Positions 3,827 to 32,691 of a DNA stretch of 64,000 nt are shown one piece after another. The stretch's first letter is position 1. Each line of letters begins with the position of its first letter. The notes under the pieces were generated by a model that searched no databases, had not been told where the DNA came from, and saw only the letters and a program-made list of their open reading frames with translations. The position numbers and the translations under genes were made by a program. This DNA is from Deltaproteobacteria bacterium (GTDB lineage: Bacteria; Myxococcota_A; UBA9160; UBA4427), in assembly GCA_019310975.1 (NCBI GenBank), contig JAFDDH010000010.1, positions 1,375-65,374 on the forward strand. The letters run 5' to 3'.

Positions 3827-3862
3827 CCGCGAAGCGGATCCGGTGGCGTCCGCGGTGCAATA

Positions 3863-4933: not shown

Positions 4934-5166
4934 GCGGGGCCGCATCAGCAGACGTGGCTTCATCGCTGAAGCCGGGCCTCGGCCACACGACGGCTGGACC
5001 CCCTCGCTTCCTCTCGTCTCGCGATTCTGCCCATGAGCTGCGTACCGGAGCGCGGGCGGCCACTCCTCTATGTACCGCGGTCGGCGCAGCTGATACCCTG
5101 CTCCAGCTCAGCGGAGCATCAGCAGGGTGCGCCGCCTGTCCGCCGCCATACGAGGTCGAGCTGGTC

Positions 5167-5949: not shown

Positions 5950-6000
5950 GAGATTTCGCGTGCCTGGAGTTCGTGTCGTCGCGATCGTAGATCCAGGGCG

Positions 6001-14431: not shown

Positions 14432-15562
14432 TCACTCTGTGCTCCGTGCGGCCTCGATTGCGCCGGCCATATCGTCCGCAGTGTGCTCCCAATCGAATTT
14501 CTTCGACCAGAGGAGAGCGGCCGAGGACATCGTCGCGGCGAGGATGTCATCGGCGAGCAGCTCGCCGATGCGCCGAGCGAATCCCTCCACGTCGGCGTCG
14601 GCGACCAGGAAGCCCGTCTCGCCATCGCGTACCGAATCGCGCAATCCGTCCGCGTCGGTCGCGACCACGGGCGTGCCGACTGCGTTCGACTCGACCACCG
14701 TCAACCCCCAGCCCTCCTTTTCGGAGGGACAGACGCATACCCGCGCCTCGGCGAGCAGGCGATCGCGCAGCGCGATCGAGACGAAGCCCTTGAAGTGCGT
14801 TCGATCAGCCAGTCCCAGCTCGGCGGCCAGCTTGCGAAGAGCGGCCTCGGCGGGACCTCGTCCGACGATGGTGATCTGTGCGTCCGGGAATCGGTCCGAG
14901 AGCCTCGCCATCGCACGCAGCATGACATCGACCTTCTTGTAGACCTCGAGGCGACCGACGAATATCACCCCCGCACGATCCGACATCGAGAGATCGGGTG
15001 CGACCTCGGGCGAATCGATGCCGGGATGGCTCACGCGAATCCGCTCGGCGGGAAGCCCACGTGCGATCAGGTCTGATCGCGTGCTCTCCGAGATCGCCAC
15101 GAAGGGTCGCCTCCGGTAGAGGGCCGGGATCAGGCGCTCGGAGGCCCAGACCGTGGCGGCCACCGGCCACGGCTTCTGCTGGAATGCCACCTCGCCAAAG
15201 AGATGGTGGGCCAGCACCAGCACCGGCGCCCGCGAGTAGACGGGGGAGTAGAAGGGCACCTTGTTGAGGCACTCGACCACGACGTCGTACGCGCCCGCAC
15301 GTGTCTCGCGCAGCGTGCTCCACAGGGCGCGCGGGTAGTAGAGGGGCAGCGGCCCGAGCCGTCGGACCTCGATGTCGTCGACCCGCTCGCTCATCGCCCC
15401 GCCCGCGAAGCCTGTCGCGAGATGCGTGACCGCGTAGCCGCGACGCGCAAGCCGGCCGAAGATCTCCGAGACGTGCGTCTCCGCGCCTCCCGCCTTGGGG
15501 TGCTTCGGATCACGCTCGTTCAACACGAGCACACGGCAGGGCGACCGGGCGGGTTCGGTCAT
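14432..15562 (-). CDS. GT4-family (GT-B fold) glycosyltransferase
   Basis: ATG 15562 (MTEPARSPCRVLVL). The GGAETHV motif and the C-terminal E-x7-E-type region PSEKEGWGLTVVESNAVGTPVV. Confidence 0.85.
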   Translation of the reverse strand: MTEPARSPCRVLVLNERDPKHPKAGGAETHVSEIFGRLARRGYAVTHLATGFAGGAMSERVDDIEVRRLGPLPLYYPRALWSTLRETRAGAYDVVVECLNKVPFYSPVYSRAPVLVLAHHLFGEVAFQQKPWPVAATVWASERLIPALYRRRPFVAISESTRSDLIARGLPAERIRVSHPGIDSPEVAPDLSMSDRAGVIFVGRLEVYKKVDVMLRAMARLSDRFPDAQITIVGRGPAEAALRKLAAELGLADRTHFKGFVSIALRDRLLAEARVCVCPSEKEGWGLTVVESNAVGTPVVATDADGLRDSVRDGETGFLVADADVEGFARRIGELLADDILAATMSSAALLWSKKFDWEHTADDMAGAIEAARSTE

Positions 15563-15596
15563 CGATACGAGCCATGCCGCATGCTGGTGCGGGGTC

Positions 15597-16313
15597 CTAG
15601 AGCCGACCCAGGGCATCGGCGATGCGCAGCCACCAGACCACCCAGAGGGCCTCCAGCCCGATCCGGAACGTGAGCTTCGAGGTGCCGCGTGTGCGATCGA
15701 GGAAGAAGAAGGGGATCTCCTTGATGCGTGCACCGTGCTTGACGAAGCGGTAGTTCATCTCGATCTGGAACGCGTAGCCGTTGGAGCGCACGCGTTCGAA
15801 GCCAACCTTCTCGAGCAGCTCGCGGCGCACGCAGCGAAACCCGCCCGTTGTGTCGCTGACCGGCAGCGCCGTGATTCTCTTGGCGTAGACGTTTCCGAAA
15901 TAGCTGATCAAGATGCGCTCGATCGGCCAATTCACCACGGTGATTCCGTCCAGGTAGCGTGAGCCCAGCACCACATCGTGGTCCTCGATCTCGCGCAGCA
16001 GCTGGGGGATGACGTCCGGCGGATGCGAGAAGTCACAGTCCATCTGGATCACCTGGTCGGCACCCAGCTCGAGGGCGTGTGCGAGCCCGGCCCGGTAGGC
16101 GGGGCCCAAGCCCTGCTTGCTGGCGCGGTGCAGCACGTGGACGCGCTCGCTCCTGCGGGCGAGATCGTCGGCCAGCTTGCCCGTACCGTCCGGCGAGTCG
16201 TCGTCGACGACGAGGATCTCGAGCTCGGCATCCTGCTCGAGCACCGCCGGGACGAGCAGAGGCAGGTTCTCGGCCTCGTTGTAGGTGGGTACGACCACGA
16301 TGGTCCGGGGCAT
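15597..16313 (-). CDS. polyprenyl-phosphate mannose (or other sugar) synthase, GT2 family (second Ppm1/DPM1-like copy)
   Basis: Motifs: IVVVPTYNEAEN, LVVDDDSPDGTG, MDCDFSHPP, VLGSRY. By eye about 45% identical to 5167-5949. Confidence 0.9.
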   Translation of the reverse strand: MPRTIVVVPTYNEAENLPLLVPAVLEQDAELEILVVDDDSPDGTGKLADDLARRSERVHVLHRASKQGLGPAYRAGLAHALELGADQVIQMDCDFSHPPDVIPQLLREIEDHDVVLGSRYLDGITVVNWPIERILISYFGNVYAKRITALPVSDTTGGFRCVRRELLEKVGFERVRSNGYAFQIEMNYRFVKHGARIKEIPFFFLDRTRGTSKLTFRIGLEALWVVWWLRIADALGRL

Positions 16314-16652: not shown

Positions 16653-17453
16653 ATGACACCGCATCGGCATCGTTTGGTCGTATTCGCCCTCTGCGCGGGT
16701 CTCTGGGGAGGGGCTGGCACCGCGAATGCGGACTGGGTCCTCTACCTCTCCGGTGAGATGGGCACCTCGAGCGGGACCGTAGACTGGTCGGGCGAGACTA
16801 GCCTTCTTGCCCGATCGAGGAGCGAGAGCTACGGCGACTCGTCGCCGCTGCTTTCAGGTGCGTTCGGAATCGCGATACCGCTCGACGAGGTGACACCTTG
16901 GGAGTTTCCCTACGACGTTCGGTTGCCGCACTGGCCGCTTCGTTTCGAGATGGAATTCACAGGCCTGCGACACTTCGCGGGTCGTTCGAACGGCTTCACT
17001 ATTCCCATTGATATGTCCGGATCGACCGACTCCTGGTCGATGATGTTCGACTTCTGGCAGGACGTACCCATGCGCGGGCTGAATGGCCCGATCGCGCGCG
17101 CCTTCGGTCGCACGCCGCGCTGGCTCGTGAAGACGCTCGACAACATGACCTTCTTTGCAGGTGCGGGCGTGGGCATGGCCGGCGTGGACTATAGCTTTGA
17201 GGACGGCGTTCACCTGGTCGAGGGCGACACGTACAACTTCGCCTGGCAGGCGGGCACGGGCTTCGGCTACTCGCTCACCAAGGCGGTCACGCTGAGCTTC
17301 GGCTACCGTTACTTCGACTACGGGTCCGTGGAGACGGACCTCATCGACTCGTCACTTGTCATTGTGGGTCCCTTCTCGATCGGCCAGAGCTCGCACGAGT
17401 TTCGCGTCGGGCTTCGCTTCGACATCTGGGGATTCCGCGGCCCCTGGCTCTAA
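16653..17453 (+). CDS. outer-membrane beta-barrel protein (OmpA-like 8-strand / OMP_b-brl type)
   Basis: Signal peptide (VVFALCAGLWGGAGTANA), alternating aromatic beta-strand pattern, and a C-terminal ...FRVGLRFDIWGF. Confidence 0.75.
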   Translation: MTPHRHRLVVFALCAGLWGGAGTANADWVLYLSGEMGTSSGTVDWSGETSLLARSRSESYGDSSPLLSGAFGIAIPLDEVTPWEFPYDVRLPHWPLRFEMEFTGLRHFAGRSNGFTIPIDMSGSTDSWSMMFDFWQDVPMRGLNGPIARAFGRTPRWLVKTLDNMTFFAGAGVGMAGVDYSFEDGVHLVEGDTYNFAWQAGTGFGYSLTKAVTLSFGYRYFDYGSVETDLIDSSLVIVGPFSIGQSSHEFRVGLRFDIWGFRGPWL

Positions 17454-17522: not shown

Positions 17523-19748
17523 GTGCGTTCCTCCCCGGCCATCGCGACCTGTATCGCCGTGGTGATGCTCTTCGTGCCCAGCACAGCCGCCGCGGCTCGT
17601 CCCGTGCAGCCAAGCGCCGACGCGGGCATTGCGGTCCACTTCGAGAGCCGTGATCTCAGCGAGATCGTCCAGGCGCTCGGCCGCGCAACCGGCGAGCGTT
17701 TCATCTACGGCGATGATCTCCGCGGCATCGTGACCATCACTGTGCCCGGACGTGTCTCGGCCGACGAGGCGCTCGAGCTACTCAATGCGGCACTCTTCCT
17801 GCGCGGCTATGCCATCTTGCCGATGGCCGACGGGGTCAAGAAGATCGTGCCCCTCGCGGAGACGAGCAGCGGGGCGCCCTTCGTCGCTGGAGTGGTGACG
17901 CCGGACGCGGAGCGGCCGATCACGACGCTGATCCATCTCGAGAACGCGGCCGCGGAGTCGGTGGTGAGCGCACTCGCCGGCTTCGTGCCGGGAGCGGGCG
18001 CCGTGTTCTCCTACCCACCCACTAATAGCATCGTGATGGCGGGCACCGAGTCGCAGGTTCGGCGCCTGATCACCATCGCACGCGTGCTCGACCGCGCAGC
18101 CGACGAGAACCTGCTGATTCTTGCGATTCGCTACCGCTCCGCCGATTTCGTCGCCGGATTGATCGAAGACGTATTCAACCAGACTGTCGTCTCGGCACGC
18201 CGAGTCGGCGTGTGGACCGACGGCCGGACGAATCGGTTGATCGTGCAGGGTGATCCTGCCCAGCTCGACGAAATCCGCCAATTCGTCGACGAAGTGGACG
18301 TTCCTCAGGAGTCGGGGGGTCTCCTGCAGGTCGTTCGCATCATCAACCGTGACGTCGACGAAGTGGCCGCTCTCCTGGAAGGCCTCTCGGAGGGACCGGT
18401 CACCGGGCCGCAGAGCCTGATCACCATGCAGGGGGTCACCCAATTTGGCGGCGCGCTGGCCGGACGCGACTACTCGATCACGGTGGATCGCAGCAGCCGC
18501 TCGCTGGTGATCCGCGCCGATCCGGGGACGTTCGAGATTCTCTCGCGCCTGATCGGCAAGATCGACAAGATTCCTGCGCGTGTGAGCGTCGAGGTGATCA
18601 TCTTCCAGCTCTCCCGCCCCAGCGCCTACACGTTCGGCGTGGACTACTTCCTGCCGGTCACCACACCCAAGAGCACGAACGATCTGATCGCATTCATCGA
18701 GCATCGTCCGAGTGGCGGCGACGGCATAGCGGCGGGTCCGGATTCTGTGATGTTCGCCCGCTACGGCCGCAAGCCCTTGATCTTCACCTTCGAGGATGAA
18801 GCCGGGAACTCGATCAGCATCCCGATCTCGCGCGAGTCCGTCGCCGTTCAGGCGGGTGAGCACACCTTCGAGGCGAGCCTGCTGATGCGGCCACACATCG
18901 TGGCCATCAGTGGCGAGGCGAACGAGATCTTCATCGGCAACAACATCCCGATTCCGGTGGCGGCGGGAAGCGCAGCTGCGACGACCACGACCGAGGCGGG
19001 CGAGGTGACGGCTGCGGCGCCCAACCCCTTTCTGTCGAATCGTCAGACCATCGAGCGCCAGGACGTGGGCGTGCGCATGCGTATCACGCCGACGCTTGGC
19101 GAGGACACCGATATTCTCCTCGAAGTGGATCTCCAGCTGACGGATATCGGCCCGCCGATTGCGGGTGATCCGATCGTAGTCGGTGTGAGCCTGGAGGAGC
19201 GGATTCTCAAAACCCGGATCCGATTGAACGAGGGCGAGATTGCAGTCATCGGTACATCGGAGCAGCAGAGTGAAGCGTACCGGGTACGCGGCATCCCCTT
19301 TCTGATGAACATTCCGCTGGTCGGCTATCTCTTCAAACGCGTCGACAAGCGTGTGGTGGATACATCACTCGTGATGATCGTGGAGGCACGGGTGATGCGT
19401 AGCCCCAGCGACGATGTGGCAGAAACGATTCGGCGCAGGATGGCCCTCGAGCGTTCGATGGCGCGGGTCTCGGATCTGGGTCGGCTGAGCGAGAGCCCCT
19501 ACGCGGTACTCCTCGACACCGTGCTGAGCGAGTCGATGGCGACGCGCATCGCGGATACGTTCACGAGCGATGGCTTCGATACCCGCGTGATTTCGTGGCA
19601 GGCGTCGGGCCAGCCGGTCTGGGACGTCTACGTGATCGAGCTCGCGTCCTTCGACGAGGCCGGCGGGCTGGCGCGGCAGCTCTACGACGCGGGCTGGCGG
19701 CCGGAGATCACCGTGCTCCCGCGCGAGAACGAGCTAGCCGGCGATTAG
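17523..19748 (+). CDS. secretin (GspD/PilQ superfamily) with C-terminal SPOR-like domain
   Basis: GTG start and signal peptide. N0 domain (IAVHFESRDLSEIVQALGRATGERFIY) followed by repeated N-domains. Secretin core ending GIPFLMNIPLVGYLFK. The last ~84 aa have a SPOR-like b-a-b-b-a-b pattern. Confidence 0.9.
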   Translation: MRSSPAIATCIAVVMLFVPSTAAAARPVQPSADAGIAVHFESRDLSEIVQALGRATGERFIYGDDLRGIVTITVPGRVSADEALELLNAALFLRGYAILPMADGVKKIVPLAETSSGAPFVAGVVTPDAERPITTLIHLENAAAESVVSALAGFVPGAGAVFSYPPTNSIVMAGTESQVRRLITIARVLDRAADENLLILAIRYRSADFVAGLIEDVFNQTVVSARRVGVWTDGRTNRLIVQGDPAQLDEIRQFVDEVDVPQESGGLLQVVRIINRDVDEVAALLEGLSEGPVTGPQSLITMQGVTQFGGALAGRDYSITVDRSSRSLVIRADPGTFEILSRLIGKIDKIPARVSVEVIIFQLSRPSAYTFGVDYFLPVTTPKSTNDLIAFIEHRPSGGDGIAAGPDSVMFARYGRKPLIFTFEDEAGNSISIPISRESVAVQAGEHTFEASLLMRPHIVAISGEANEIFIGNNIPIPVAAGSAAATTTTEAGEVTAAAPNPFLSNRQTIERQDVGVRMRITPTLGEDTDILLEVDLQLTDIGPPIAGDPIVVGVSLEERILKTRIRLNEGEIAVIGTSEQQSEAYRVRGIPFLMNIPLVGYLFKRVDKRVVDTSLVMIVEARVMRSPSDDVAETIRRRMALERSMARVSDLGRLSESPYAVLLDTVLSESMATRIADTFTSDGFDTRVISWQASGQPVWDVYVIELASFDEAGGLARQLYDAGWRPEITVLPRENELAGD

Positions 19749-20687
19749 GGGCGCCGCAGCGCCGAGCGGCCCGGTGGTCTCGGGCGCGATGGTGCCGCTC
19801 ACGCGGCCCCGCGCGTCCACCGAGAGATGCGGCAGCCCGACCTCTGCCAGCCAGGCGCGGCCCGCGTGTTCCCCCTTCAGCATCGCGATGGTCGAGGTCG
19901 TGCCCGCCACCACGCACTGCGGCGCGATGACGCTGACGCCAGCGAGCCCGCTGACCGGCCAGCCCTGCGTCGGATCCAGGATGTGGCCATAGCGAACGCC
20001 GTCCACGAGCATGAAGCGCTCGTAATCGCCGCTGCTCGCGATGGCGCCACTGGAGAGCCCGACCCAGGCGATGGCGGCCTGCGGCGCGCGCGGATGGCGA
20101 ATTCCCACCCGCCACGGGCTGCCCTCGGGCTGTGGACCGATGACCGCGATATCGCCGCCGAGATCCACGAAGCCGTGCCGCGCCCCCATCCCGCGACAGA
20201 GTTGAACGACGCGATCCGCCGCGTACTCCTTCACGTAGCCGCCGAGGTCGATCTGCATCCCTCTGCGAGGGAGCGCGATGCGCGGTCGCTCCCAGACCAC
20301 TTTTCGCCAACCCACCAGGGGCAGGAGCGCTTCGATCTGCTGCGGTGTCGGCAGCCGATTCGAGCGGAAGTCCCAGGCGCGCCGCAGCACACCGGAGGTC
20401 ACATCGAAGAGTCCATCACTGAGGCGGTGCCCGATGTCCGCATAGTCGAGCAGCGCTGCCGTCTCGGCGTCGACCTCGATGCCCTCCGCGTCACCCGCAC
20501 TGGCATTGATGTGGGAGACGACGCTGTCGCTGCGGAAACGGGAGTATTTGTGCTCGAGGCGCTCGATGTCGTCGCGCGCCGCGCGCACGATCGCGTCGGC
20601 GTCGCGTCCGGCATGAAGCTGGATCTGGCAGCGCGACCCCATCGCTCGGAAGGGGTAGCGACGAAGCTTTTGTTCAGAACTTCGCAC
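19734..20687 (-). CDS. apbE: FAD:protein FMN transferase (ApbE family)
   Basis: Motifs: YPFRAMGSRCQIQL, SRFRSDSVVSHIN, DLGGYVKEYA, ASSGDYERF. Start options are GTG 20687 (14-nt overlap with the upstream gene), ATG 20744 and ATG 20642. None gives an obvious signal peptide. Confidence 0.85.
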   Translation of the reverse strand: MRSSEQKLRRYPFRAMGSRCQIQLHAGRDADAIVRAARDDIERLEHKYSRFRSDSVVSHINASAGDAEGIEVDAETAALLDYADIGHRLSDGLFDVTSGVLRRAWDFRSNRLPTPQQIEALLPLVGWRKVVWERPRIALPRRGMQIDLGGYVKEYAADRVVQLCRGMGARHGFVDLGGDIAVIGPQPEGSPWRVGIRHPRAPQAAIAWVGLSSGAIASSGDYERFMLVDGVRYGHILDPTQGWPVSGLAGVSVIAPQCVVAGTTSTIAMLKGEHAGRAWLAEVGLPHLSVDARGRVSGTIAPETTGPLGAAAPLIAG

Positions 20688-22020
20688 CGAGCAGCACCGA
20701 GAAGAGGTGGTATTCCACCAGGCCAGGGTTGGCGAGCTCCACATCGGAGATCGCCCAGTCTGCGCTCGTCCTATAGCGCTGGTAGGCGAGGGAGAGGATC
20801 CAGCTCAGGTCCCGATCCGGCCAGCCGTCGAGGTGGGCGTTTGCTCGCAGCCCGTAGCTGATCGCGCCGAAGGGAGAGAGTCGGTAGTCGCTCGTGCGAT
20901 AGGTCGGTATGCCGAAGCGGAAGACCGGACCGTAGAAGTCCGCCTGGCTCTGCGAGTAATAGCGGAAGGACGGGATCAGCTCGAAGCGCTCGAAGAGCGT
21001 CTGGTACCACGCGACCTCGGCCGTAAAGGAAGAGACGCTCCACGAATCCCACTGGCCGGCGACGTCGACGTGAAGAGACGCGTTTGCGGGCCGGATGAAG
21101 TGCCGGTAGCGCGCGAAGGGTGTGAGCTGATGGCGCTCGCTCGGGCGCCGGTCATCGACGGTGGTGCCATCGTTGCTGACCTCGACCCGCTTGTAGGGAT
21201 CGGATAGATAGCCGTCGCCGTGCTTGTAGGCGAGGCCGGCCTGGAGGATCGCGTCGCGGTAGAGGATCTGCGAAAGGGTCAGATTGAAGGCCTGCGCCTT
21301 CTTGTAGTAGACGCCGAGGCCGAGGTCGTCATGCTGAGCCGGGTCGGTCGGCGTGATGGTATCCCACGAGAATCCCAAGCCGACGTTGAGGACGGTATTC
21401 TTGTCGTTGAAGCTGCGTTCGATATCGAAGCCGAAATTGCCCGAGAGGTAGTCCTTCTCGGACGAGACGCCACCCGTCAGCCCGATGCGCCCGCGGTCGA
21501 AGTAGTGATTGACGCCGATCTGCCCGTCGACGCGCTGCTCGAAGATGGTGGCGCCGCTCATGACCTGCAGATACTTCTGCTGCCCCTGGTCCCACGTGAC
21601 CCACCAGGGCGAGGCGCCGGACATGGTCTCGAAGACGAGGTCGACCCGGGTATCGATCCGCGAGGTCACCGGTGCGATCAGACTGAATTGGTGGGCGAAG
21701 ATCTCGTAGCGATTGCGGCTACCGCCGAGGTCTTCGTTCCACAGCCCGGGGCTGAGGTTGTCCTCCTTGTAATAGGAGAACGAGTAATCGGCCGAGGGCT
21801 CCTGGACGGGTGAGTCCGCACCCGCCGGCCCGGCCAGCATGCCCGGCAGCGCGAGCGCGCCCGAGGTGAGGGCCGCGAGCTTGGCGGACGGGCCGATCGG
21901 CAGGGTCTCACGCGCTTCCTGCGAGCGGCCGTCGCACGCCGCCTGCAGCCGCCCCCCCACGGCGACATCGCCCTTCACCCGATCCATCCCCTCTGCTCCG
22001 CCCCCCGTCGGATCCGCCAT
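20674..22020 (-). CDS. DUF3570-like outer-membrane-type protein
   Basis: Signal-like region ALTSGALALPGMLAGPAGA, aromatic-rich beta pattern, C-terminal ...LFSVLLGAKF. Two SGA[ST] motifs are present. The family assignment is from memory of the conserved DUF4266/DUF3570/ApbE/thioredoxin neighbourhood. Confidence 0.8.
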   Translation of the reverse strand: MADPTGGGAEGMDRVKGDVAVGGRLQAACDGRSQEARETLPIGPSAKLAALTSGALALPGMLAGPAGADSPVQEPSADYSFSYYKEDNLSPGLWNEDLGGSRNRYEIFAHQFSLIAPVTSRIDTRVDLVFETMSGASPWWVTWDQGQQKYLQVMSGATIFEQRVDGQIGVNHYFDRGRIGLTGGVSSEKDYLSGNFGFDIERSFNDKNTVLNVGLGFSWDTITPTDPAQHDDLGLGVYYKKAQAFNLTLSQILYRDAILQAGLAYKHGDGYLSDPYKRVEVSNDGTTVDDRRPSERHQLTPFARYRHFIRPANASLHVDVAGQWDSWSVSSFTAEVAWYQTLFERFELIPSFRYYSQSQADFYGPVFRFGIPTYRTSDYRLSPFGAISYGLRANAHLDGWPDRDLSWILSLAYQRYRTSADWAISDVELANPGLVEYHLFSVLLGAKF

Positions 22021-22254
22021 TCAGTTGCAGCCGCAGCCCCCGCCCCCGCCCCCGCCAGGCGGCAGCGAGCCCTCTTTGCTGAAGCGGATGTGATTCTGAA
22101 GTGCCGCGGCCTGCGGGTCGGGATCCCAGAGCATGTCGGCCCTCGCCAGTGTGTCCCGCTCCCAGGGCTTCACGGCCACGCAGCCCGACGTCGCGCCGAT
22201 CAGTGCGATCCCGATCGCGACTGCGATCCAGTCTCCCCTGCGAGCGCGCATCAT
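22021..22254 (-). CDS. DUF4266-like small lipoprotein with Gly7-CGCN C-terminus
   Basis: ATG 22254 overlaps the tlpA-like stop (ATGA). Lipobox IGATSGC. Ends ...PPGGGGGGGCGCN. Its stop abuts the start of the next gene. Confidence 0.75.
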   Translation of the reverse strand: MMRARRGDWIAVAIGIALIGATSGCVAVKPWERDTLARADMLWDPDPQAAALQNHIRFSKEGSLPPGGGGGGGCGCN

Positions 22255-22775
22255 TTCCTCTCCAGCCACTTGCGGACCTCGGCCCTGATCTTCTTCATGT
22301 CCCCGTCGCGGTAGCCCTTGTGGACGACGCGAACGACACCATCGCGATCGATGAGATACGAGGTCGGCATCGTCTCCAGCCCGTATCGGTCCGGTAGTGC
22401 GCCCTGCGGATCGCTGCCGCTCGGGTATCCGACGGGATTGCGGGCGAGGAACTTGAGTGCCTTCTTCTTGTCCTCGTCGAGGTTCACCGCGACGATCTGA
22501 AACTCGCCGGCTGGCATCTGCTTGCGGAGCTCTTCGAGCTCGGGCAGCGAGCTCAGGCAGGGCGGGCACCAGGAAGCCCAGAAGTCCAGCCATACGACCT
22601 TGCCCCGGTGGCTCTGCAGTGAGACATCGCCCTTGCCATCGAGTGATGGAAGGCTGAAGCCCGGGGCTTTGTCGCCCGGTTCCAACGCCACTGCCGCCTC
22701 TGCGATCAGGGCGCAGCCGAGAACGACCACCACGATCGTGGCCAGAACACCCGGCTTCGATTGGCATCGGATCAT
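22251..22775 (-). CDS. TlpA/ResA-family periplasmic thiol:disulfide oxidoreductase (membrane anchored)
   Basis: ATG 22775 with a GGAG RBS. TM anchor VLATIVVVVLGCALI. Active site WASWCPPC. Confidence 0.9.
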   Translation of the reverse strand: MIRCQSKPGVLATIVVVVLGCALIAEAAVALEPGDKAPGFSLPSLDGKGDVSLQSHRGKVVWLDFWASWCPPCLSSLPELEELRKQMPAGEFQIVAVNLDEDKKKALKFLARNPVGYPSGSDPQGALPDRYGLETMPTSYLIDRDGVVRVVHKGYRDGDMKKIRAEVRKWLERK

Positions 22776-22875
22776 CGAAGCGTCTCCACTTGCGCGCGGA
22801 CCTGCACGTGGAGGCGAGCCCACGCTGCTCTCTCATCGTCGCGACTGCGTGCTTCGATGAGTCGATTCTCGTTCT

Positions 22876-25257
22876 TCAGGAGGCCGCGTCGCGAGTCGTC
22901 GGCGGCGCTGCGGCCCGGATGGAATCCACGACGACGCCGATGCTCAGCAGCTCCGGTAGCACCTGGGGCCGCTCTGGGGAGCTCGGGTCGTAGACGAGGT
23001 AGAGGGGCACGCCCGCGCGTCCATGGCGGGCGAGCTCCGCGCGGATCGTCTCGTCACGCTGGGTCCAGTCGGCCCTGAGGACGCGTACGTTCAGTCGCTC
23101 GAGCTCGGCGAGCACGCGCGAGTCTCGCAGCACGACAGTCTCGTTCAGCTTGCACGTGATGCACCACTCCGCCGAGAAGGCCACCAGCACCGGCCGACCT
23201 TCCTCGAGTGCCGCGCTGACCTGCCCGGGACTCCACGCCGCCCAGCCCTCGGCACTCTCGCCCGGCAGCGGTGGTGTCGCGGTCGCGAGTCGCGCGCGAA
23301 CCAGATCGAGCCCCACCAGGGCGAGCAGAACCAGCGCGATTCCGGCGCTGGTGCGCAGCCAGGTGCGCTCCCCGTGCTGGAGCATTCCGTAGATCCACAA
23401 TCCGAAGGCGATCGCGACCAGCAGCGCCAGCAGGGTCGTCATGCCTTCGGTGCCCGAGAGCCCCCCGGCGATCCAGAGCAACCACACCACCGTGGCCAGC
23501 AGCGCAAAGCCCAGCCCGGACCGCAGCTTGAGCATCCACGCTCCCGAGCGCGGCACAAAGCGCGACCAGGCGGGCACCCAACTGATGAGCACGAAGGGCG
23601 CTGCGAGGCCGGCACCGATACAGAGAAAGATCAGGACGATGGTGAGTGCCGAGCCCGCGAACGCGAAGCCCACGGCCGTCCCCAGGAAGGGCGCCGAGCA
23701 GGGCGTTGCGAGCACGACTGCCAATAGGCCCTCGAAGAAGCTGCGCCGCGTGCCCGTGGTCTGTTCGCCCAGGCGCGCGGCTCCCCCCGCGTCGAAGCTG
23801 ATCTCGAAGACGCCGAAGAGATTGAGTGCGAAGGTGACCAGCACGATCGAGATGGCAGACACGAAGAGCGGCGATTGGAATTGGAACCCCCAGCCCACCT
23901 GGCCGCCGGCTGCCCGCAGCGCGAGCACCGCTCCCGCCAGCACAGCCATGGAAATGAGGATCCCGAGCGCGTAGGCGCCACCGCTCCGGCGCAGCGCGCT
24001 CCGATCGCGGCCGGCCATCTCGGCGATGCCGAAGACCTTGATGGCCAGGACCGGCAGCACGCAGGGCATCAGGTTCAGGATCAGCCCGCCGAGCAGCGCG
24101 AGCAGGATGACCTCTAGCAGACTCGGGCTGGAGTGGATCGCCACCCCCCCGGCCGGGTCTTCGTGCACGCCCGGAAGCCAGTGCTCTCCGAGCAGCGTGA
24201 CCTGCGCGCTCGCGTCGATGGATGGCAGGGGCAGGTCCACGTCCACGTGGGCGCGACGGCCGGAGAGGTCCTGCAGGACGAGCACGCCGCGCAGACGCGG
24301 CTCGGATGTCGCGGCACTCTCGTCTGCTCCTTCCCAGTCTTCGCTCACCTCGGCCTCGAAGCCGGCGAGCGAATGGTGCGGATCGTCTCTGGTGGGCAAC
24401 GCGGCTGCCGGCTCGGCACGGATCGGGAAAGTGGCGGCGGGAAAGAAGACGACGCCCTCGGCTGCGATTCGCCAGGGCACGCACTCGCCCGGCGTCGTGC
24501 AGGCGCGTGCTCCGATGGCGGCGTGAAAGGTCGATCCCGGTCGCAGCGCACTACGGTCGTAGAGCGATTCGAGCTCGACGCCGAGGCTCGCCGGTGCCAC
24601 AGGTACCCGCGCCTCGAAGTCGTCGAAGATCCGGCTGAGGCTGGCGTTGTCGGGTGAATCGACCAGCGCGGCGGTCAGCGAGCGCTCCAGCTCGATGCGT
24701 GCGGGAATGCACTCGCGCTGGCAGATCAGCAGGTCGATGTCGACGGCGATGCGGTGCTCGCGATCGAATTCCGGTGCGAGCGTGACATCGCTGGCCAGCA
24801 ACACACGCCCCTCGTAGCCGAAGGTGACGAAGAGGCCGTCGGCCTCGCTGAAGCTCTGCGGAGCGGGCCAGCGCAGCGCTCCCGCCTCGCCGCCTTCGAC
24901 CCTCCAATGCACCCGTGTCGGCAGCCCCGTGTCGCCAGAATTGCGCCAGTAGAGGTGCCAGCCCGGGTCGAGATCGAAGAGGACGCCGACGCGAACCAAG
25001 TCGGGCGTGGCCCGGCCCGCATCCACGAGAAGGTGCGCCCGCAACCGGGCCCCGCCCTCGTAATGACCGCTCTCACCGCTCGCTCCGGCGGGAAGCGCAC
25101 GCAGCACGCTCGAGGAAGCAGTGGCCGCCCGGAGCTGCGATCCGCCCAGAGCGAAGAGCCATGCAACCAGGAAGACGAGTATGCGGCCGGCTCGCCCTGC
25201 GGCGGCCGGGCCGGGCTTCCTCTCTTCTTCGTCCGCTTCTTCCGGTATCCGCTTCAT
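22876..25257 (-). CDS. dsbD: thiol:disulfide interchange protein DsbD/ScsB-type (N-terminal DsbD-alpha-like, CcdA-like TM core, C-terminal thioredoxin)
   Basis: ATG 25257 (MKRIPEE). Motifs: GWHLYWRNSGDTGLPT and ICQRECIP (alpha domain), LMPCVLPVL and ATPCSAPFLG (TM cysteines), AEWCITCK (thioredoxin). Confidence 0.9.
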   Translation of the reverse strand: MKRIPEEADEEERKPGPAAAGRAGRILVFLVAWLFALGGSQLRAATASSSVLRALPAGASGESGHYEGGARLRAHLLVDAGRATPDLVRVGVLFDLDPGWHLYWRNSGDTGLPTRVHWRVEGGEAGALRWPAPQSFSEADGLFVTFGYEGRVLLASDVTLAPEFDREHRIAVDIDLLICQRECIPARIELERSLTAALVDSPDNASLSRIFDDFEARVPVAPASLGVELESLYDRSALRPGSTFHAAIGARACTTPGECVPWRIAAEGVVFFPAATFPIRAEPAAALPTRDDPHHSLAGFEAEVSEDWEGADESAATSEPRLRGVLVLQDLSGRRAHVDVDLPLPSIDASAQVTLLGEHWLPGVHEDPAGGVAIHSSPSLLEVILLALLGGLILNLMPCVLPVLAIKVFGIAEMAGRDRSALRRSGGAYALGILISMAVLAGAVLALRAAGGQVGWGFQFQSPLFVSAISIVLVTFALNLFGVFEISFDAGGAARLGEQTTGTRRSFFEGLLAVVLATPCSAPFLGTAVGFAFAGSALTIVLIFLCIGAGLAAPFVLISWVPAWSRFVPRSGAWMLKLRSGLGFALLATVVWLLWIAGGLSGTEGMTTLLALLVAIAFGLWIYGMLQHGERTWLRTSAGIALVLLALVGLDLVRARLATATPPLPGESAEGWAAWSPGQVSAALEEGRPVLVAFSAEWCITCKLNETVVLRDSRVLAELERLNVRVLRADWTQRDETIRAELARHGRAGVPLYLVYDPSSPERPQVLPELLSIGVVVDSIRAAAPPTTRDAAS

Positions 25258-25649
25258 GGTTTTGGGGGGGCGTCCAGCATCGTCGATCGCATGGTCGCAC
25301 GTCTCGAAGTATCGACGCCCATCGGTCTGAACATGTGATCTTTGACCATACGCACCTCGCCCGGCCATGGATACAAGCGCGCCGTGGATCCGATCGGTCT
25401 CTGCGTTGCCGACGACGTGCCGATGGGTTGCGCATGAAACGCTTGCTCGAGAGGCGAAGCTGAATCGAAGCGACCGGAAGTGTAGGAGAAAGACCCAAGA
25501 GTGTGACACAACACACCGATACGAGGCGTGCTGACCCGATATCTCTCTCGGACCGCGACGGCACCGACCTCGGTTTCGGCGTGGACGGCGTCGATGCTGC
25601 GAGGCGGGGCCCGGGTCGAGCCGTTGGTGCGAAGCGGAGTGAATAGAAT

Positions 25650-26909
25650 ATGATGGCAAGCCCCGACCGGATCCCGGCGCCCTTGCGCCGTCTCGGCGGC
25701 CTCGAGAGATTCACGTACATGCTCGTCCTGGCGGCTGCCCTCGCGGTGCTCCCGCTGGTGGCGAGCGCAGGCTCGCAGGAGCGCGCCAAGCGCATCCACG
25801 ATCGCCTCGTGGGCATCCCGCCGGATGCCCCCACGCTCGCGACCATGGTGTCGATCCTCGACACCCAGACCCCCGAAGAGGGGCCCAAGGCCGCGGCCCT
25901 CTTCGCCCTCGAGCATCCCGTCTTCTACACGTCGACGCTGAAGAACTTCGCGGCGCCGTGGACGAATGTCGATCAGACGGTCTTCGTGCCGCTGAACGAC
26001 TACTCGGCCACCGTGATCGGGATGATTCGCGACGAGGTGCCCTTCAATACGGTGCTCAGCGCGGATCTCGTCTATCACGGTGCCAACGGAGTCGTGGCGA
26101 ATCGCTACTCGCATGACAACAACCACCACTACGAGCAGCTCGAGGCCGACCATATCGACCTCAGCGATACCAGCGACTTCATCGGGCGGCCCCAATCGAC
26201 GCTGCCCGGTAGCCAGCTCTCCGGCGGCAACACCGCCGGCGTGATCACCACGCGTGCGGCGGGCGAGGCGTACTTCAGTGCCGGCACCAATCGCCGCATG
26301 TGGCGTTTTACCGCAATGAACTTTCTGTGCCGAGATATGGAGGACCTGCTCGACACGAGCTTGACCTCGGATTGGATCCGGCAGGACGTGACGAGGAGCC
26401 CGGGTGGGGATAGCTCGATCTTCCTGAACTCCTGCATCGGTTGCCACAACGGAATGGATCCGATGGCGGGCGCGTACGCGTACTTCGAGTGGGTGCCCGG
26501 GGACGACGCCGACGCCGACGACAACGGCCGTGTGATCCACACCCTGGGCCAGGTCCAGCCCAAGTACCTCATCAACGGCAACATCTTTCCCTTCGGCTAC
26601 GTGACGACCAGCAATCGTTGGGAGAATCGCTGGCTCGAAGGCAAGAACTCGGTGATGGGCTGGCCGGCCGCACCGAAGGAGGGCTTCGGCGCGAAGGGGC
26701 TCGGCGTGGCGGTGGGCAATAGCGATGCGTTCGCGACCTGCCAGGTCGAGAAGGTCTTCAAGCAGATCTGCTTTCGCGAGGACTCCAGCGACCCGGACCG
26801 CACCCTGATCAGCACAGTTACCGAGAATTTCAAGGCCAACGACTACAACCTGAAGCACGTCTTTGCCGAGGTCGCCGCCTATTGCACGCAGGCCGACGCC
26901 ACCAATTGA
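25650..26909 (+). CDS. exported protein of unknown function with single CxxCH motif (DUF1588/PSCyt-like signature)
   Basis: Hydrophobic leader MLVLAAALAVLPLVASA. CIGCH at 26433-26447 followed by GMDPMAG. Protein-like composition, in contrast to antisense ORF 25254..27020. Confidence 0.75.
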   Translation: MMASPDRIPAPLRRLGGLERFTYMLVLAAALAVLPLVASAGSQERAKRIHDRLVGIPPDAPTLATMVSILDTQTPEEGPKAAALFALEHPVFYTSTLKNFAAPWTNVDQTVFVPLNDYSATVIGMIRDEVPFNTVLSADLVYHGANGVVANRYSHDNNHHYEQLEADHIDLSDTSDFIGRPQSTLPGSQLSGGNTAGVITTRAAGEAYFSAGTNRRMWRFTAMNFLCRDMEDLLDTSLTSDWIRQDVTRSPGGDSSIFLNSCIGCHNGMDPMAGAYAYFEWVPGDDADADDNGRVIHTLGQVQPKYLINGNIFPFGYVTTSNRWENRWLEGKNSVMGWPAAPKEGFGAKGLGVAVGNSDAFATCQVEKVFKQICFREDSSDPDRTLISTVTENFKANDYNLKHVFAEVAAYCTQADATN

Positions 26910-27018
26910 TGATCGTCGAGCGACGGCGATGCAGCCGTGCGGGGATCGACTACCGCGGAGGGGTATTCGCGGGGATCGCGGAATGATGGAACCAACCGAA
27001 CCAAAGGGACACTCCAGC

Positions 27019-29178
27019 ATGAAGATCCGAAAGGCCAGTGGACTCGTACTGCTGCTGCTCTCGGTGGGCTTGCTGGCCGCCTGCGGTGATTACTCGGGCG
27101 GCGACAGGCCTCCGGCGGATCCCTTCGCGACGACCGGCGTCCTGCCGACCGGCATCACCGAGGCGGAGAATATTCAATTCTTCAGCGAGACCGTCTGGCC
27201 GATCGTGAATAGCGAGACCTGCGGCGACTGCCACACCCAGTCGGGCGGGAAGCCCTTCCCCTTCGCAGACCCGAATCTCACCTTCGCGTACCGGACCATC
27301 GTCGACAACGGCAAGGTGAACTTCGGTACGCCCTCCGATTCACGCATCGTCGTGAAAGTCGTCGGTGGACACCACTGCTGGAGCGGTGATTGCTCGTCGG
27401 ACGCGATTGATCTCTTGTTGGCCATGGAAGATTGGATCGCCCGCATCGAGGCAGCGGGCGGCAGCTCTTCGGGCGGTACCGAGGTGGGTGCCGGGACCCT
27501 GGTCAGTCAAACGGTCGACCCAAGGCCTGCTCCGCTTGGCGACGGCGTCGAGGACGAGGGGGGCGCGCGCGTCCTGAACAACCTCATCGCCTTCTACCGA
27601 TTCGACGAGTACGACCCGGACACAATCATCACGACCGCCCAGGATACCAGCGGCGTCCCGCCCGCCATGGACATCGAGTTGGAGGCGGGCGTCGCCCTGA
27701 TGGAGTCCTACGGGGTCGACTTCTCGGCCGGACGTGCGCGGGCTGAGACCAATGGAAGCCGGAAGCTCTACGACCACATCGGCCATCCGGACCTGGGCAC
27801 GGGTCAGTTCAGTATCGAGATGTGGATGGCCCCTGCGAATACGAACCAGGAAGCGCGAATGTTTGCCTTCTCGGACAACTTCCAGCTGATTCAGCAAGAG
27901 TATCAATATCAGTTTCGTGTGCGCAGTCTCGCGCCGAACATCCCGGGCAACGGCTCGGTCGGCACGCTGACGACATACGACCAGGACCGCGATCTGCAAG
28001 CCGGTCTGCAGCACACCGTTGTCACCTACGACCGATTCAACGGCATGCGGGTCTTCGTGAACGGCGAGTACACCGACGATGTGGATGCAAATGGGGGCGG
28101 TCTGCTCTGGAACTGGCGCGAGGATAGGCGGTTGGAGCTCGGCTCCACGGGTGCCGACGGCTGGTATGGCAAGATCAAGATGCTGGCCATCTACAAGCAG
28201 GTGCTCAGCCTCGAGCAGATTCGCCAGAACTGGCAGGCAGGTGTCGGTCTTCGGCTGACTCTCCGATTCGACATCAGTCAATTTGGTGGACCGGGCAGCG
28301 CGATCGAGATCTCGCTCTCGCAGATCGACGATCAGAGCTATCTGCTCTGCCAGCCGACGGTGATCACCGACAATCTCGGCATGAAGATCAGGGGTCTTCG
28401 GATCAAGGCGAACGGCACGGAGACGGGTGTGGGCCAGGCATTCTCACGCCTGAACACGATCGTCACGAGCAACCGCCAGCAGATCTCACCGCATTGCACG
28501 ATGTTGGCGAACGACTCGGGACCGGAGAACTTCCAGCTTGCCTTCGAGGGGCTCTCGGGCTGGATCGATCCGATTCCCGACGTGGATTGGGGCGAGATCC
28601 AGTACGACTACACGGGCGTCGAGATGCCGCCGACCAACGGCATGCGCGACTTCGCGCGGGTCAACGAGACGATGGCGCTGCTCACGAATGTGCCCACCGC
28701 CGATTCCGTCATCGAGGCGACCTATTTGACGCTGGTCCAGCAGCTTCCGGGCAGCGCAGATCTCAGATCCTTCGTGAGCTCCAACCAGGTCGGCATCTCG
28801 AAGTTGGGCTTCTCGTACTGCAACGAGTTGGTAGAAGATCCGGCTGGGCGGGATGTCTTCTTTGATCAGGGCCCGGCGCCGATCGAGTGGAGCCAGCTGC
28901 CCGCGGACGCCTTCCTGAACGACGTCAGCGAGGACAGGCGATTGCGTGTCACGGGTCCGCTGGTGGACAAGATGGTGGGCGATCTCAGCGTACAACCGGC
29001 CCCGGGTGACGTGGAGAATAGGCTCCTCACACTGATGGACGATCTGATGGTCGCCAAGGCGGCGGATTGCACGGACTGCGGTGGAGGCTGCAACGCGTGC
29101 ACCGACCAGGCGACCAAGGACATCGTGAAGGGTGTCTGCACCGCGGTTCTGGCCAGCGGCGCAGCCCAGATGCATTAG
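27019..29178 (+). CDS. lipoprotein with PSCyt-like CxxCH N-domain, LamG (concanavalin-like) domain and Cys-rich C-terminus
   Basis: ATG 27019 (MKIRKASGLVLLLLSVGLLAAC is a lipobox leader). CGDCH at 27220-27234. LamG-like FSIEMWMAP...GMRVFVNGEY. CTDCGGGCNAC near the end. Confidence 0.8.
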   Translation: MKIRKASGLVLLLLSVGLLAACGDYSGGDRPPADPFATTGVLPTGITEAENIQFFSETVWPIVNSETCGDCHTQSGGKPFPFADPNLTFAYRTIVDNGKVNFGTPSDSRIVVKVVGGHHCWSGDCSSDAIDLLLAMEDWIARIEAAGGSSSGGTEVGAGTLVSQTVDPRPAPLGDGVEDEGGARVLNNLIAFYRFDEYDPDTIITTAQDTSGVPPAMDIELEAGVALMESYGVDFSAGRARAETNGSRKLYDHIGHPDLGTGQFSIEMWMAPANTNQEARMFAFSDNFQLIQQEYQYQFRVRSLAPNIPGNGSVGTLTTYDQDRDLQAGLQHTVVTYDRFNGMRVFVNGEYTDDVDANGGGLLWNWREDRRLELGSTGADGWYGKIKMLAIYKQVLSLEQIRQNWQAGVGLRLTLRFDISQFGGPGSAIEISLSQIDDQSYLLCQPTVITDNLGMKIRGLRIKANGTETGVGQAFSRLNTIVTSNRQQISPHCTMLANDSGPENFQLAFEGLSGWIDPIPDVDWGEIQYDYTGVEMPPTNGMRDFARVNETMALLTNVPTADSVIEATYLTLVQQLPGSADLRSFVSSNQVGISKLGFSYCNELVEDPAGRDVFFDQGPAPIEWSQLPADAFLNDVSEDRRLRVTGPLVDKMVGDLSVQPAPGDVENRLLTLMDDLMVAKAADCTDCGGGCNACTDQATKDIVKGVCTAVLASGAAQMH

Positions 29179-30744: not shown

Positions 30745-30870
30745 CCCGGGTGCGGACACAGCGTCGACGACCGGGGGGATGTCGGTGGCACGGAGCGTGA
30801 TCAAGACCAGTCCTCCCCGATCCGATGAGGGTCATGCCAGAGCATGGCGGCCAGGGAAGTGGGAGCGAAA

Positions 30871-31335
30871 ATGAACGACAAGAGTCCCGGCGCACCCTCC
30901 TGGCTCTTCTCATTCGTGGACCTCGCGTTCCTGATGCTGATCGCGATGACCCAGCTCGCCCCCGACCCGAGCCGGCAGGCCCCGGATCTCGGCGAGATGG
31001 TCGTGCCGCGCATCTCCGAGAAGTCGTCGGGCGAGATGCCGGGCGACGCGGCTCGCGCCTGGCAGCTGCGCATCCACCCGCCCTCCGAGCCGGCCGCCGA
31101 GCGCTTCGAGCTCGTCCTCATCGACCCGACGGCTGCGCGGAGCTCCGAGTTCTACACCGAGGTGGGTGGCCTGCGTGAGCGGCTCGCCGAGCTGGACCGT
31201 GCATCGGGTCCGCGACCGCTGCTCGCTCCGCACGAGGATGCGCGCAGCCAGGACCTGCTGGACGCTGCGGCGCTGCTCGAAGAGTACTGGCCGGGAAGGC
31301 GGCGCGTGACGATCGCCCGCGTCTTCGACAGCTGA
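30871..31335 (+). CDS. divergent ExbD/TolR-family protein
   Basis: ATG 30871 with a GGGAG RBS. Single TM segment SWLFSFVDLAFLMLIAMT carrying the conserved Asp (30919-30921). Short periplasmic domain. Confidence 0.7.
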   Translation: MNDKSPGAPSWLFSFVDLAFLMLIAMTQLAPDPSRQAPDLGEMVVPRISEKSSGEMPGDAARAWQLRIHPPSEPAAERFELVLIDPTAARSSEFYTEVGGLRERLAELDRASGPRPLLAPHEDARSQDLLDAAALLEEYWPGRRRVTIARVFDS

Positions 31336-31336
31336 G

Positions 31337-32671: not shown

Positions 32672-32691
32672 ATCAAGGAGTCGCACGCCGG

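Follow-up and report, generated by a model that had tools for sequence, protein, structure and literature searches.

A typical DsbD-type flavinylation locus in the Myxococcota, with a predicted outer-membrane flavin barrel and an ApbE that lacks a recognisable export signal

We analysed a stretch of 64,000 nucleotides (nt), here called the window, from a Deltaproteobacteria bacterium that GTDB places in the Myxococcota_A (assembly GCA_019310975.1, contig JAFDDH010000010.1, positions 1,375 to 65,374). At 19734-25257 the window carries five co-directional minus-strand open reading frames (ORFs) that encode a DsbD-like, a TlpA-like, a DUF4266, a DUF3570 and an ApbE protein, every one of which passes its Pfam threshold. 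The locus is a typical copy of the already published DsbD-type flavinylation system, and the best explanation that we can offer for it is a reductive relay from cytoplasmic thioredoxin to flavin mononucleotide (FMN) held on a predicted outer-membrane barrel. The features concerned are listed here with their coordinates in the window.

22876-25257, minus strand (ATG start): DsbD/ScsB-like membrane thiol:disulfide electron transporter of 793 amino acids (Pfam DsbD_N, E 4e-13; DsbD_TM, E 1e-17; Thioredoxin_7, E 2e-17).
22251-22823, minus strand: TlpA/ResA-like periplasmic thioredoxin-fold reductase with WCPPC (Pfam Redoxin, E 1e-25; AhpC-TSA, E 5e-24).
22021-22254, minus strand: DUF4266, probable small lipoprotein, precursor of 77 amino acids (PF14086, E 2e-19).
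22024-22056, minus strand: C-terminal poly-Gly arm and Cys-Gly-Cys-Asn terminus of DUF4266 (GGGGGGGCGCN), proposed to be a mobile dithiol/disulfide shuttle.
20674-22020, minus strand: DUF3570, predicted outer-membrane β-barrel of 448 amino acids from the first ATG (PF12094, E 1e-54; predicted structure).
21610-21621, minus strand: flavinylation motif 1, S134-G-A-S137, with a predicted FMN-phosphoester on S137 (read from the sequence).
21547-21558, minus strand: flavinylation motif 2, S155-G-A-T158, with a predicted FMN on T158 (read from the sequence).
19734-20687, minus strand: ApbE-family FAD:protein FMN transferase of 317 amino acids from GTG 20687, with an alternative start at 20744 (PF02424, E 9e-76, 255 bits against a cutoff of 25.6).

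The five genes are tightly packed. The stop of TlpA and the start of DUF4266 share an ATGA overlap at 22254-22251, the TGA stop of DUF4266 (22023-22021) abuts the DUF3570 ATG at 22020, and the ApbE GTG at 20687 overlaps the DUF3570 stop (20676-20674) by 14 nt. An earlier note on this DNA, made from the letters alone, had described five minus-strand genes with these junctions, and the ORFs, the Pfam matches and our own reading of the sequence bear this out; its gene identities, its view of the genes as tightly coupled and its idea of one self-contained envelope module of thiol and flavin chemistry are supported as well. The sole real gap in the block, of 52-100 nt, runs from the DsbD stop (22876) to the start of TlpA, either GTG 22823 or ATG 22775, of which the latter is more likely. 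A scan of 19400-25900 for promoter-like and terminator-like sites found none inside the block, a weakly informative result since the scan is uninformative for this organism. At the far end, ApbE and a convergent secretin gene overlap in their 3' ends by 15 nt (19734-19748), with no intergenic space for a terminator. We also considered a read-through or fusion of DUF3570 with ApbE and rejected it, as the commonest spacing of the two genes (29 nt) sets ApbE in another frame.

This type of cluster was defined as the "DsbD system" by Méheust et al. in 2021 (Méheust, Huang, Rivera-Lugo, Banfield & Light, eLife 10:e66878, PMC8238504). They counted 285 DsbD-containing flavinylation clusters, typically with ApbE, DUF3570 (227), DUF4266 (221) and a thioredoxin-like protein (183), and another 316 clusters with the same genes and no adjacent DsbD. 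Co-expression of DUF3570 from Chlorobium luteolum with its cognate ApbE gave a band that fluoresced under ultraviolet (UV) light after SDS-polyacrylamide gel electrophoresis, and the fluorescence disappeared only after the serines of both [ST]GA[ST] motifs had been mutated. The protein was made without its signal peptide in the cytoplasm of Escherichia coli, where it formed inclusion bodies and was flavinylated nonetheless. The same study noted that the C-terminal CXC of DUF4266 is conserved, proposed a hybrid thiol/flavin electron transfer, and called the function of the system "uncertain", with iron as a tentative connection on account of VIT1 in 25 clusters (PMC8238504).

The genes and motifs by which this system is recognised are all present in the window: ApbE, a DUF3570 with two motifs, a DUF4266 ending in CXC, a thioredoxin-like protein and DsbD (PF02683). 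The two flavinylation motifs in the window DUF3570, taken together with the published flavinylation of a DUF3570 protein, place the locus in the known system, and at the level of the five genes there is essentially no difference from it. In one detail the assignment of domains is distinct, in that the thioredoxin-like family of Méheust et al., PF13899, here matches the C-terminal domain of DsbD, while the separate reductase is of the Redoxin/AhpC-TSA type. The text of PMC8238504 makes no mention of a barrel fold for DUF3570 (the word "barrel" is never used), of a missing signal peptide on the linked ApbE, or of neighbours of the PSCyt/PSD-type CXXCH, twin-arginine translocation (Tat) protein or secretin kinds. 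A study of C-terminal sorting signals (bioRxiv 10.1101/2023.06.07.544157) found some JDVT-CTERM proteins in a conserved neighbourhood with DUF4266, DUF3570 and TlpA genes, which hints at another partner of the module in a few species.

The conservation of the cluster was followed in 160 loci. An alignment of 35 DUF3570 homologues retrieved a first set of 80 loci from GTDB species genomes (the single window protein as query gave none), mostly from metagenome-assembled genomes (MAGs) of Myxococcota or "Deltaproteobacteria" with few Gammaproteobacteria, and a gammaproteobacteria-centred scan supplied a second set of 80; gene content was determined by tblastn with the window ORFs. TlpA, DUF4266, DUF3570 and ApbE stand in identical order and strand in 72 of the 74 first-set loci with enough flank, and the same four genes are in order in 54/80 second-set loci. 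TlpA remains joined to the flavin core, through overlap or abutment with DUF4266, in about 125 loci. DsbD lies immediately upstream in 55 of the 80 first-set loci and has moved to the opposite strand, 2-6 kb downstream, in five others. This arrangement is far beyond chance. The four genes from TlpA to ApbE are a nearly invariant core, and DsbD is a lineage-specific addition that is adjacent only in Myxococcota-type loci, in line with the published split between 227 clusters with DsbD and 316 without. Cultured carriers of the core are found in Zhongshania, Hahella and Allohahella. Many of the closest MAGs (L002-L004, L007, L009, L012, L018, L025, L026 and others) are labelled "uncultured Spirochaetaceae/Spirochaetales"; in gene order their loci agree with those of Myxococcota MAGs, which they also resemble most, and the labels look unreliable.

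These results bear on what the earlier note had proposed. Its suggestion that the genes could form an undescribed system was wrong, the cluster having been defined in PMC8238504. Its statement that DUF3570 has no assigned function still holds for the physiological role but is outdated as regards the chemistry, where DUF3570 is an established ApbE substrate. The co-expression of DUF3570 with ApbE that it recommended, with UV fluorescence as the readout, had already been carried out in the same study, and flavin was seen on the C. luteolum homologue. Among the outcomes that it had named as speaking against its module were genes that do not travel together and an ApbE that serves an unlinked NQR- or RNF-type target; we find the four-gene core kept in nearly all first-set loci with enough flank and an ApbE dedicated to DUF3570.

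The thiol side of the module has all the residues expected of it. The DsbD-like protein opens with an Ig-like DsbD_N domain, which has CQREC; its transmembrane domain bears two Pro-Cys motifs, and a thioredoxin-like domain with WCITC closes the chain. All three Cys pairs are kept in 45 of 45 full-length relatives. It is no equivalog of NCBIfam DsbD (NF001419; 131.8 bits against a cutoff of 330), and its N-terminal region of about 380 amino acids is much longer than that of E. coli-type DsbD and resembles ScsB, with extra Cys pairs. The TlpA-like protein has a signal- or lipobox-like N-terminus (VVVLGC) when read from ATG 22775, and WCxxC is present in 73/73 relatives. It scores below the ResA, DsbE and TlpA equivalog cutoffs of NCBIfam and is thus a member of the family without a named orthologue group; for DUF4266 and DUF3570, NCBIfam holds no model.

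DUF4266 is probably a lipoprotein, very small and with a distinctive end. Its presumed lipobox cysteine, Cys25, is encoded at 22180-22182 and would leave a mature protein of about 55 residues. The lipobox of the window protein, IALIGATSG-C, has an atypical Thr at -3, while its relatives have a canonical L[AST][GA]C by pattern; the lipobox Cys is present in every relative in which the pattern located the N-terminus, a pattern that missed about 30 of 76. At the other end the window protein terminates in …GGGGCGCN. The last four residues are CGCN in all 76 first-set loci, and the second set has GCGCN in 72 of 77, with three CGCY and one CGCSN; the C-terminus is almost always GGGCGCN. A run of glycines followed by a terminal Cys-Gly-Cys is what we would expect, from the sequence, of a slender and mobile dithiol/disulfide arm.

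The partner of this arm is DUF3570. AlphaFold2 with the 35-sequence alignment returned a confident model with a mean predicted local distance difference test (pLDDT) of 82 and a predicted template modelling score (pTM) of 0.79, in which residues 1-67 are disordered, β-strands run throughout 76-447, and about 16-18 strands form a barrel that spans residues 76-448. Foldseek against the PDB found only generic outer-membrane barrels (FadL, BcsC, PgaA, PelB and porins), with template modelling (TM) scores of 0.47 or less, and no functional analogue. The C-terminal residue is Phe in the window protein and in 71/80 relatives, and the N-terminal region contains a segment that resembles a signal peptide when judged by eye (LAALTSGALALPGMLAGPAGA/DS). 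DUF3570 is predicted to be an outer-membrane β-barrel of the kind assembled by the β-barrel assembly machinery (BAM), closed and antiparallel, with short periplasmic turns and a C-terminal aromatic residue. According to the DSSP strand list, turns of 2-7 residues lie on one side (118-121, 175-176, 205-208, 255-256, 310-313, 343-345 and 399-405) and the long loops all lie on the other (87-105, 223-237, 271-294, 358-385 and 419-436), which follows the usual pattern of periplasmic turns and external loops.

In the model the two flavinylation motifs, ETM-SGAS-PWW (residues 134-137) and QVM-SGAT-IFE (155-158), fall in the segment 134-158 on the long-loop side. They flank a short hairpin (138-144/149-154), motif 1 where strand 122-135 ends and motif 2 where strand 159-174 begins. 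In such a barrel the two FMNs should sit side by side at its outer or lumenal mouth. Motif 1 is present as [STA]GA[ST] in 80/80 relatives. The best-conserved motifs of the family (LSDPYK, D-x-RP, YYSQSQA-FY and SSDYRLSPYGA) are found in long loops, at residues 270-294 and 355-386, which is unusual for surface loops and suggests that these loops fold together with the flavin loop into a structured site in the barrel. Of the 80 barrels, 75 are without any Cys, and since the barrel has none of its own, the CGC of DUF4266 would be the only thiol pair at hand next to the flavins.

The N-terminus of DUF3570 (window positions 21820-22020, residues 1-67) has some peculiarities. In the presumed signal peptide the hydrophobic stretch is itself conserved (L-x-A-L-T-S-x-A-L-A-L-P-G), and a long, very basic extension of 20-50 residues often precedes it at the N-terminus, an unusual feature for a signal of the general secretory (Sec) pathway. 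A Tat route, which would suit the loading of a cofactor in the cytosol, was considered and rejected; twin arginines precede the hydrophobic segment in about 8 of the 35 homologues and not in the window protein.

We favour, with somewhat more confidence than doubt, an explanation in which the published DsbD-type system works as a reductive relay from thioredoxin through DsbD, TlpA and the CGC tail to the FMN of the barrel and on to an acceptor. Reducing equivalents of cytoplasmic thioredoxin would cross the inner membrane through the three Cys pairs of the DsbD/ScsB-like protein, a chemistry that is established for the family. The periplasmic TlpA-like protein would then receive them at its CxxC, as the family and the co-conservation of the genes suggest. 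TlpA in turn would reduce the C-terminal Cys-Gly-Cys of DUF4266, with the poly-Gly arm as a mobile shuttle, and the resulting dithiol would reduce the FMN covalently held on Ser137 and Thr158 of DUF3570, where flavinylation has been shown for a homologue and the transfer from thiol to flavin is a proposal of ours. DUF4266 and DUF3570 could together constitute a split flavo-thiol oxidoreductase, since there are no cysteines in the barrel itself. The usual topology of outer-membrane proteins puts the flavin loop at the barrel's outer or lumenal end, and the flavins could therefore reduce an acceptor that lies in the lumen or on the cell surface, with neighbouring CXXCH proteins, iron or another metal as candidates. 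In gammaproteobacterial loci an unlinked equivalent could replace DsbD. ApbE, which is translationally coupled to DUF3570, most likely attaches FMN to the unfolded precursor before its export or assembly.

Several known systems are comparable to such a relay. As in the DsbD/ScsB pathways that serve TlpA, ScsC or CcmG, a three-domain membrane transporter with as many Cys pairs would supply a CxxC protein of thioredoxin fold in the periplasm. The known clients of those pathways are apocytochromes, peroxiredoxins, isomerases and copper-related proteins, whereas the co-conserved client here is a CGC-tailed lipoprotein of about 55 residues paired with a flavinylated barrel. The shuttle of yeast Erv2p is likewise a Cys-Gly-Cys. 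In the Erv family of flavin-dependent sulfhydryl oxidases, flexible tails with CXC or CXXC shuttle disulfides bring electron pairs to the flavin centre (PMC3509050), and the likeness to the Erv, ALR and QSOX enzymes lies in a CXC-type shuttle on a flexible tail between a thioredoxin-fold partner and a flavin. In contrast to their helical FAD domain, we find an outer-membrane β-barrel with predicted covalent FMN, a shuttle on a separate lipoprotein, no flavin-proximal CXXC and a direction that is likely reductive instead of oxidative. Like the MtrCAB porin-cytochrome conduits, the module is a redox-cofactor unit with an outer-membrane β-barrel that could move electrons across the outer membrane. 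However, MtrCAB threads multihaem proteins through its barrel, while here the cofactor would be covalent FMN on the barrel itself; no multihaem cytochrome was found in the cluster, and the barrel of about 16-18 strands is smaller than the 26-stranded MtrB and matches it only in a generic way (6r2q_B, TM 0.38).

Several points weigh against this relay or parts of it. The flow from TlpA through DUF4266 to flavin, and its direction, are inferred. An Erv shuttle delivers electrons to a flavin-proximal CXXC; there is none here, and by that analogy a direct reaction of CGC with flavin would be required. DsbD was found in none of the gammaproteobacterial loci, whose flanks cover 6-7 kb, which leaves the electron source there to be accounted for. 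Motif 2 is canonical in 73 of the 80 DUF3570 relatives and degenerate in seven (TAAT, SGPS/SGPT, TEAT or TQAT, in L011, L028, L041, L042, L044, L047 and L048), with motif 1 intact in each; judging from these motifs, some members of the family probably carry a single flavin. The membrane side of the flavin loop in the model follows only from strand order and loop lengths, and the long "outer" loops with LSDPYK and DYRLSPYGA are so unusually conserved that they may fold into the lumen. With regard to ApbE, signal peptides were judged by hydropathy and the available codons, with no trained predictor, and all characterised cytosolic ApbEs have cytosolic targets (PMC12052999).

The alternative that survives best is a module for handling metals, although we regard it as unlikely. 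In such a module the GGGCGCN tail would be a ligand of Cu(I) or Fe, the flavo-barrel a ferric or cupric reductase or a gate that serves the uptake or detoxification of metal, and DsbD and TlpA would keep the metal-binding thiols reduced, as in ScsB/ScsC copper tolerance. The long ScsB-like N-terminal region of DsbD with its extra Cys pairs fits this view, and a DUF4266 tail in which even single residues are conserved suggests a role beyond that of a simple disulfide. A TonB-dependent receptor also lies just upstream in one Zhongshania locus. This receptor is not conserved, however, with weak matches in only two other loci, and across the 160 loci no metal transporter, VIT1 or copper gene belongs to the conserved neighbourhood. 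Moreover, a covalent flavin together with a thioredoxin-fold partner points first to electron transfer.

The reductive relay that we favour includes flavinylation before export, and this depends on where ApbE acts. The window ApbE has no signal peptide and no lipobox; its conserved core (…YPFRAMGSRCQIQL) begins 15 residues past GTG 20687, and the Pfam domain begins at the MGS motif. The same is true of the DUF3570-linked ApbE in all of 145 loci, 78 of Myxococcota type and 67 gammaproteobacterial. In the former, the AMG motif begins a median of 32 nt past the DUF3570 stop. In the latter, the longest possible N-terminus has a median length of 11 residues and is non-hydrophobic in 66/67 cases, the cultured Zhongshania included. 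Two Thiotrichaceae loci have ApbE at the head of the operon, where the N-terminus reads MKLAPIQRAPKWQLYGLSFK/AMGSPC. The enzyme scores 89 bits against the 498-bit cutoff of the E. coli-type equivalog. A Cys is conserved in the first ApbE motif (AMGSPCE).

Canonical ApbEs are lipoproteins or secreted, and the few known cytosolic ones serve cytosolic substrates (PMC12052999). The window ApbE resembles the cytosolic ApbE of Klebsiella fumarate reductase in having no signal peptide, and it has the enzyme family and the [ST]GA[ST] phosphoester chemistry in common with the ApbEs that modify NqrC and RnfG. Unlike for the known cytosolic enzymes, its only linked substrate is a predicted outer-membrane protein. 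The modification sites of a folded barrel would be beyond the reach of ApbE. It is most likely that FMN is attached to the unfolded DUF3570 precursor, likeliest in the cytoplasm before post-translational export by Sec. Three observations argue for this order of events: the DUF3570 and ApbE genes are translationally coupled, insoluble cytoplasmic DUF3570 was still flavinylated so that ApbE can act on a non-assembled substrate (PMC8238504), and Sec is stated in reviews to pass chains that bear side-chain adducts or a disulfide-closed loop.

It would nevertheless be conceivable that ApbE is periplasmic after all, having reached that compartment by an unrecognised route or from an unannotated start, in which case the missing signal peptide would have no mechanistic meaning. 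In favour of this, the well-studied ApbEs with exported substrates are all lipoproteins or secreted, and a cytosolic version of Salmonella ApbE failed to complement (PMC12052999); the ApbE frame is also often open far upstream in high-GC loci. On the other side, fewer than 20 in-frame codons precede the AMG motif in 23 of the 78 Myxococcota-type loci, and the gammaproteobacterial N-termini, those of the two operon-heading ApbEs among them, are short and, with one exception in 67, non-hydrophobic. No ApbE N-terminus has a twin-arginine motif followed by a hydrophobic stretch. We therefore consider a periplasmic ApbE decidedly unlikely. We know of no precedent for a covalent flavin that is attached before the export of an outer-membrane protein.

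The conserved neighbourhood extends beyond the five genes on both sides, with the following features in the window.

25650-26909, plus strand: secreted protein of 419 amino acids with one CXXCH (CIGCH), remotely like PSCyt3/PSD2 (DUF1588/DUF1585), divergent from DsbD; 59/80 loci.
26863-29178, plus strand: lipoprotein-like CXXCH (CGDCH) protein with a LamG/concanavalin-like domain (Laminin_G_3, E 1e-15) and a Cys-rich C-terminus; 53/80 loci.
29200-30744, plus strand: protein of 514 amino acids with a twin-arginine signal (TRREFLAQG); Tat motif kept in five full-length relatives.
17523-19748, plus strand: GspD-like secretin, convergent with ApbE (Pfam Secretin, Secretin_N and N0); 44/80 loci.
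16653-17453, plus strand: small β-barrel protein of the outer membrane, encoded upstream of the secretin (sub-threshold OMP_b-brl match, E 2e-5); 41/80 loci.

The 419-residue family has exactly one CXXCH in 54 of 54 full-length copies, with PSD2 matches in 7/9 members and PSCyt3 matches in 5/9. Its profile aligns with a gammaproteobacterial PSCyt protein across C-x-G-C-H-x-x-M-D-P (hhalign probability 88%, E 3e-6). The LamG-domain protein likely starts at M53, near 27019. For the 514-residue Tat protein, Pfam, NCBIfam, PDB sequence and profile searches gave no match, and neither did hhalign against the DUF1501 neighbour described below. The secretin scores 259 bits with NCBIfam GspD, under the cutoff of 351. 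In six loci (L042-44, L051, L054 and L067) the order has changed to one divergent operon of the 419-residue protein, the LamG protein, the Tat protein and the secretin, which is still attached to TlpA-DUF4266-DUF3570-ApbE; DsbD is on the other strand downstream in five of these and absent from the flank in L054. That the neighbourhood survives such a rearrangement argues for a functional link.

The second set contains a related arrangement. In about 14 of its 80 loci, a protein of 786 amino acids with PSCyt3, PSD4 and cytochrome-c domains and a Tat-signal DUF1501 protein lie directly upstream of TlpA and co-directional with it (L071 at 2483-6175, L081-L093, L097, L134 and L154). The hosts include Hahellaceae, Hahella, Allohahella, Oleiphilaceae, Thiotrichaceae, Methylococcales and Pseudohongiellaceae, and in the two Thiotrichaceae loci (L089 and L093) the order is ApbE-PSCyt-DUF1501-TlpA-DUF4266-DUF3570. 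Among the candidates for a client or partner of the flavin module, PSCyt/PSD-type CXXCH proteins and their Tat partners are at present the strongest.

These neighbours could also be read as a sign of two unrelated functions, with DsbD and TlpA as the reductive branch of cytochrome c maturation or maintenance for the adjacent CXXCH proteins and DUF4266, DUF3570 and ApbE as a distinct flavin module that draws electrons from a source of its own. Apocytochromes are classically reduced by TlpA/ResA/CcmG-type proteins and DsbD/CcdA, and the two CXXCH proteins are encoded divergently next to DsbD in 53-59 of the 80 loci. It also fits that DsbD is separable from the core and missing within 6-7 kb in gammaproteobacterial loci. 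However, TlpA is kept with the flavin core in 40 gammaproteobacterial loci that have no CXXCH gene nearby, and where DsbD moves off (L042-44, L051 and L067), the CXXCH genes stay with TlpA-DUF4266-DUF3570. A division of the locus into two functions is, in our view, more doubtful still than a periplasmic ApbE.

The least plausible reading is a reversed flow, in which the flavo-barrel would act as an Erv-like sulfhydryl oxidase that oxidises CGC, gives electrons to O2 or an external acceptor and generates disulfides at the outer membrane with TlpA as isomerase or oxidase partner; DsbD, a dedicated importer of reducing power, is directly upstream in most Myxococcota-type loci, and to our knowledge TlpA-family proteins are reductants in all characterised cases. 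What speaks for it is that a CXC shuttle on a tail is characteristic of flavin-dependent sulfhydryl oxidases (PMC3509050), that Méheust et al. allow in principle for electron flow in flavinylated systems to reverse, and that their clusters without a linked DsbD outnumber those with one, by 316 to 227 (PMC8238504).

Further genes around the locus recur to a lesser extent. Past the small outer-membrane protein lie glycosyltransferase genes (one GT4 and two GT2; 14432-16313, minus strand, and 4930-5949, plus strand), with homologues at the edge of 13 loci. Downstream of the Tat protein, at 30844-34389 on the plus strand, are ORFs for proteins of 163, 444 (Pro/Ala-rich) and 621 amino acids with no Pfam match; the 163- and 621-residue proteins have homologues in 6-10 loci, at the other side of the cluster, and the conserved neighbourhood may be larger than outlined here. 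In Zhongshania genomes, a family-less protein of 145 amino acids (L052 at 5615-6052; also L060, L063, L066, L078 and L079) recurs a few kb from the core, and one of these loci has the upstream TonB-dependent receptor.

The reductive relay can be extended to a conduit from thiol to flavin across the outer membrane, a speculative picture that we think unlikely to hold in full. A cytosolic, translationally coupled ApbE would flavinylate the unfolded DUF3570 precursor before Sec, and BAM would fold the precursor into a barrel with two FMNs at its outer or lumenal mouth. The poly-Gly-CGC tail of DUF4266 would thread into this barrel to reach them and bring in electrons of the DsbD/TlpA relay. The clients would be the PSCyt/PSD-type CXXCH proteins and their Tat-exported partners (DUF1501 in Gammaproteobacteria, the 514-residue protein in Myxococcota), with a dedicated secretin in addition in Myxococcota.

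In conclusion, the composition of the system and the flavinylation of DUF3570 have been known since 2021, and our analysis adds the predicted barrel fold, the ApbE without a signal peptide and the link to PSCyt/PSD-type, Tat and secretin neighbours. A cysteine-free outer-membrane barrel with its flavin sites on one loop points to a redox chemistry based on flavin instead of haem, located at the outer membrane or running across it. The signal-less ApbE, seen in 145 loci from two phyla, would mean either that flavin is attached before an outer-membrane protein is exported or that ApbE reaches the periplasm by an unrecognised route. The PSCyt/PSD-type families are large and were first defined in Planctomycetes. 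Their repeated link to the flavin module, together with the Tat partners (DUF1501 in Gammaproteobacteria), would, if it reflects a shared pathway, give a handle on both sets of proteins, and the cultured carriers in Zhongshania, Hahella and Allohahella make genetics feasible.

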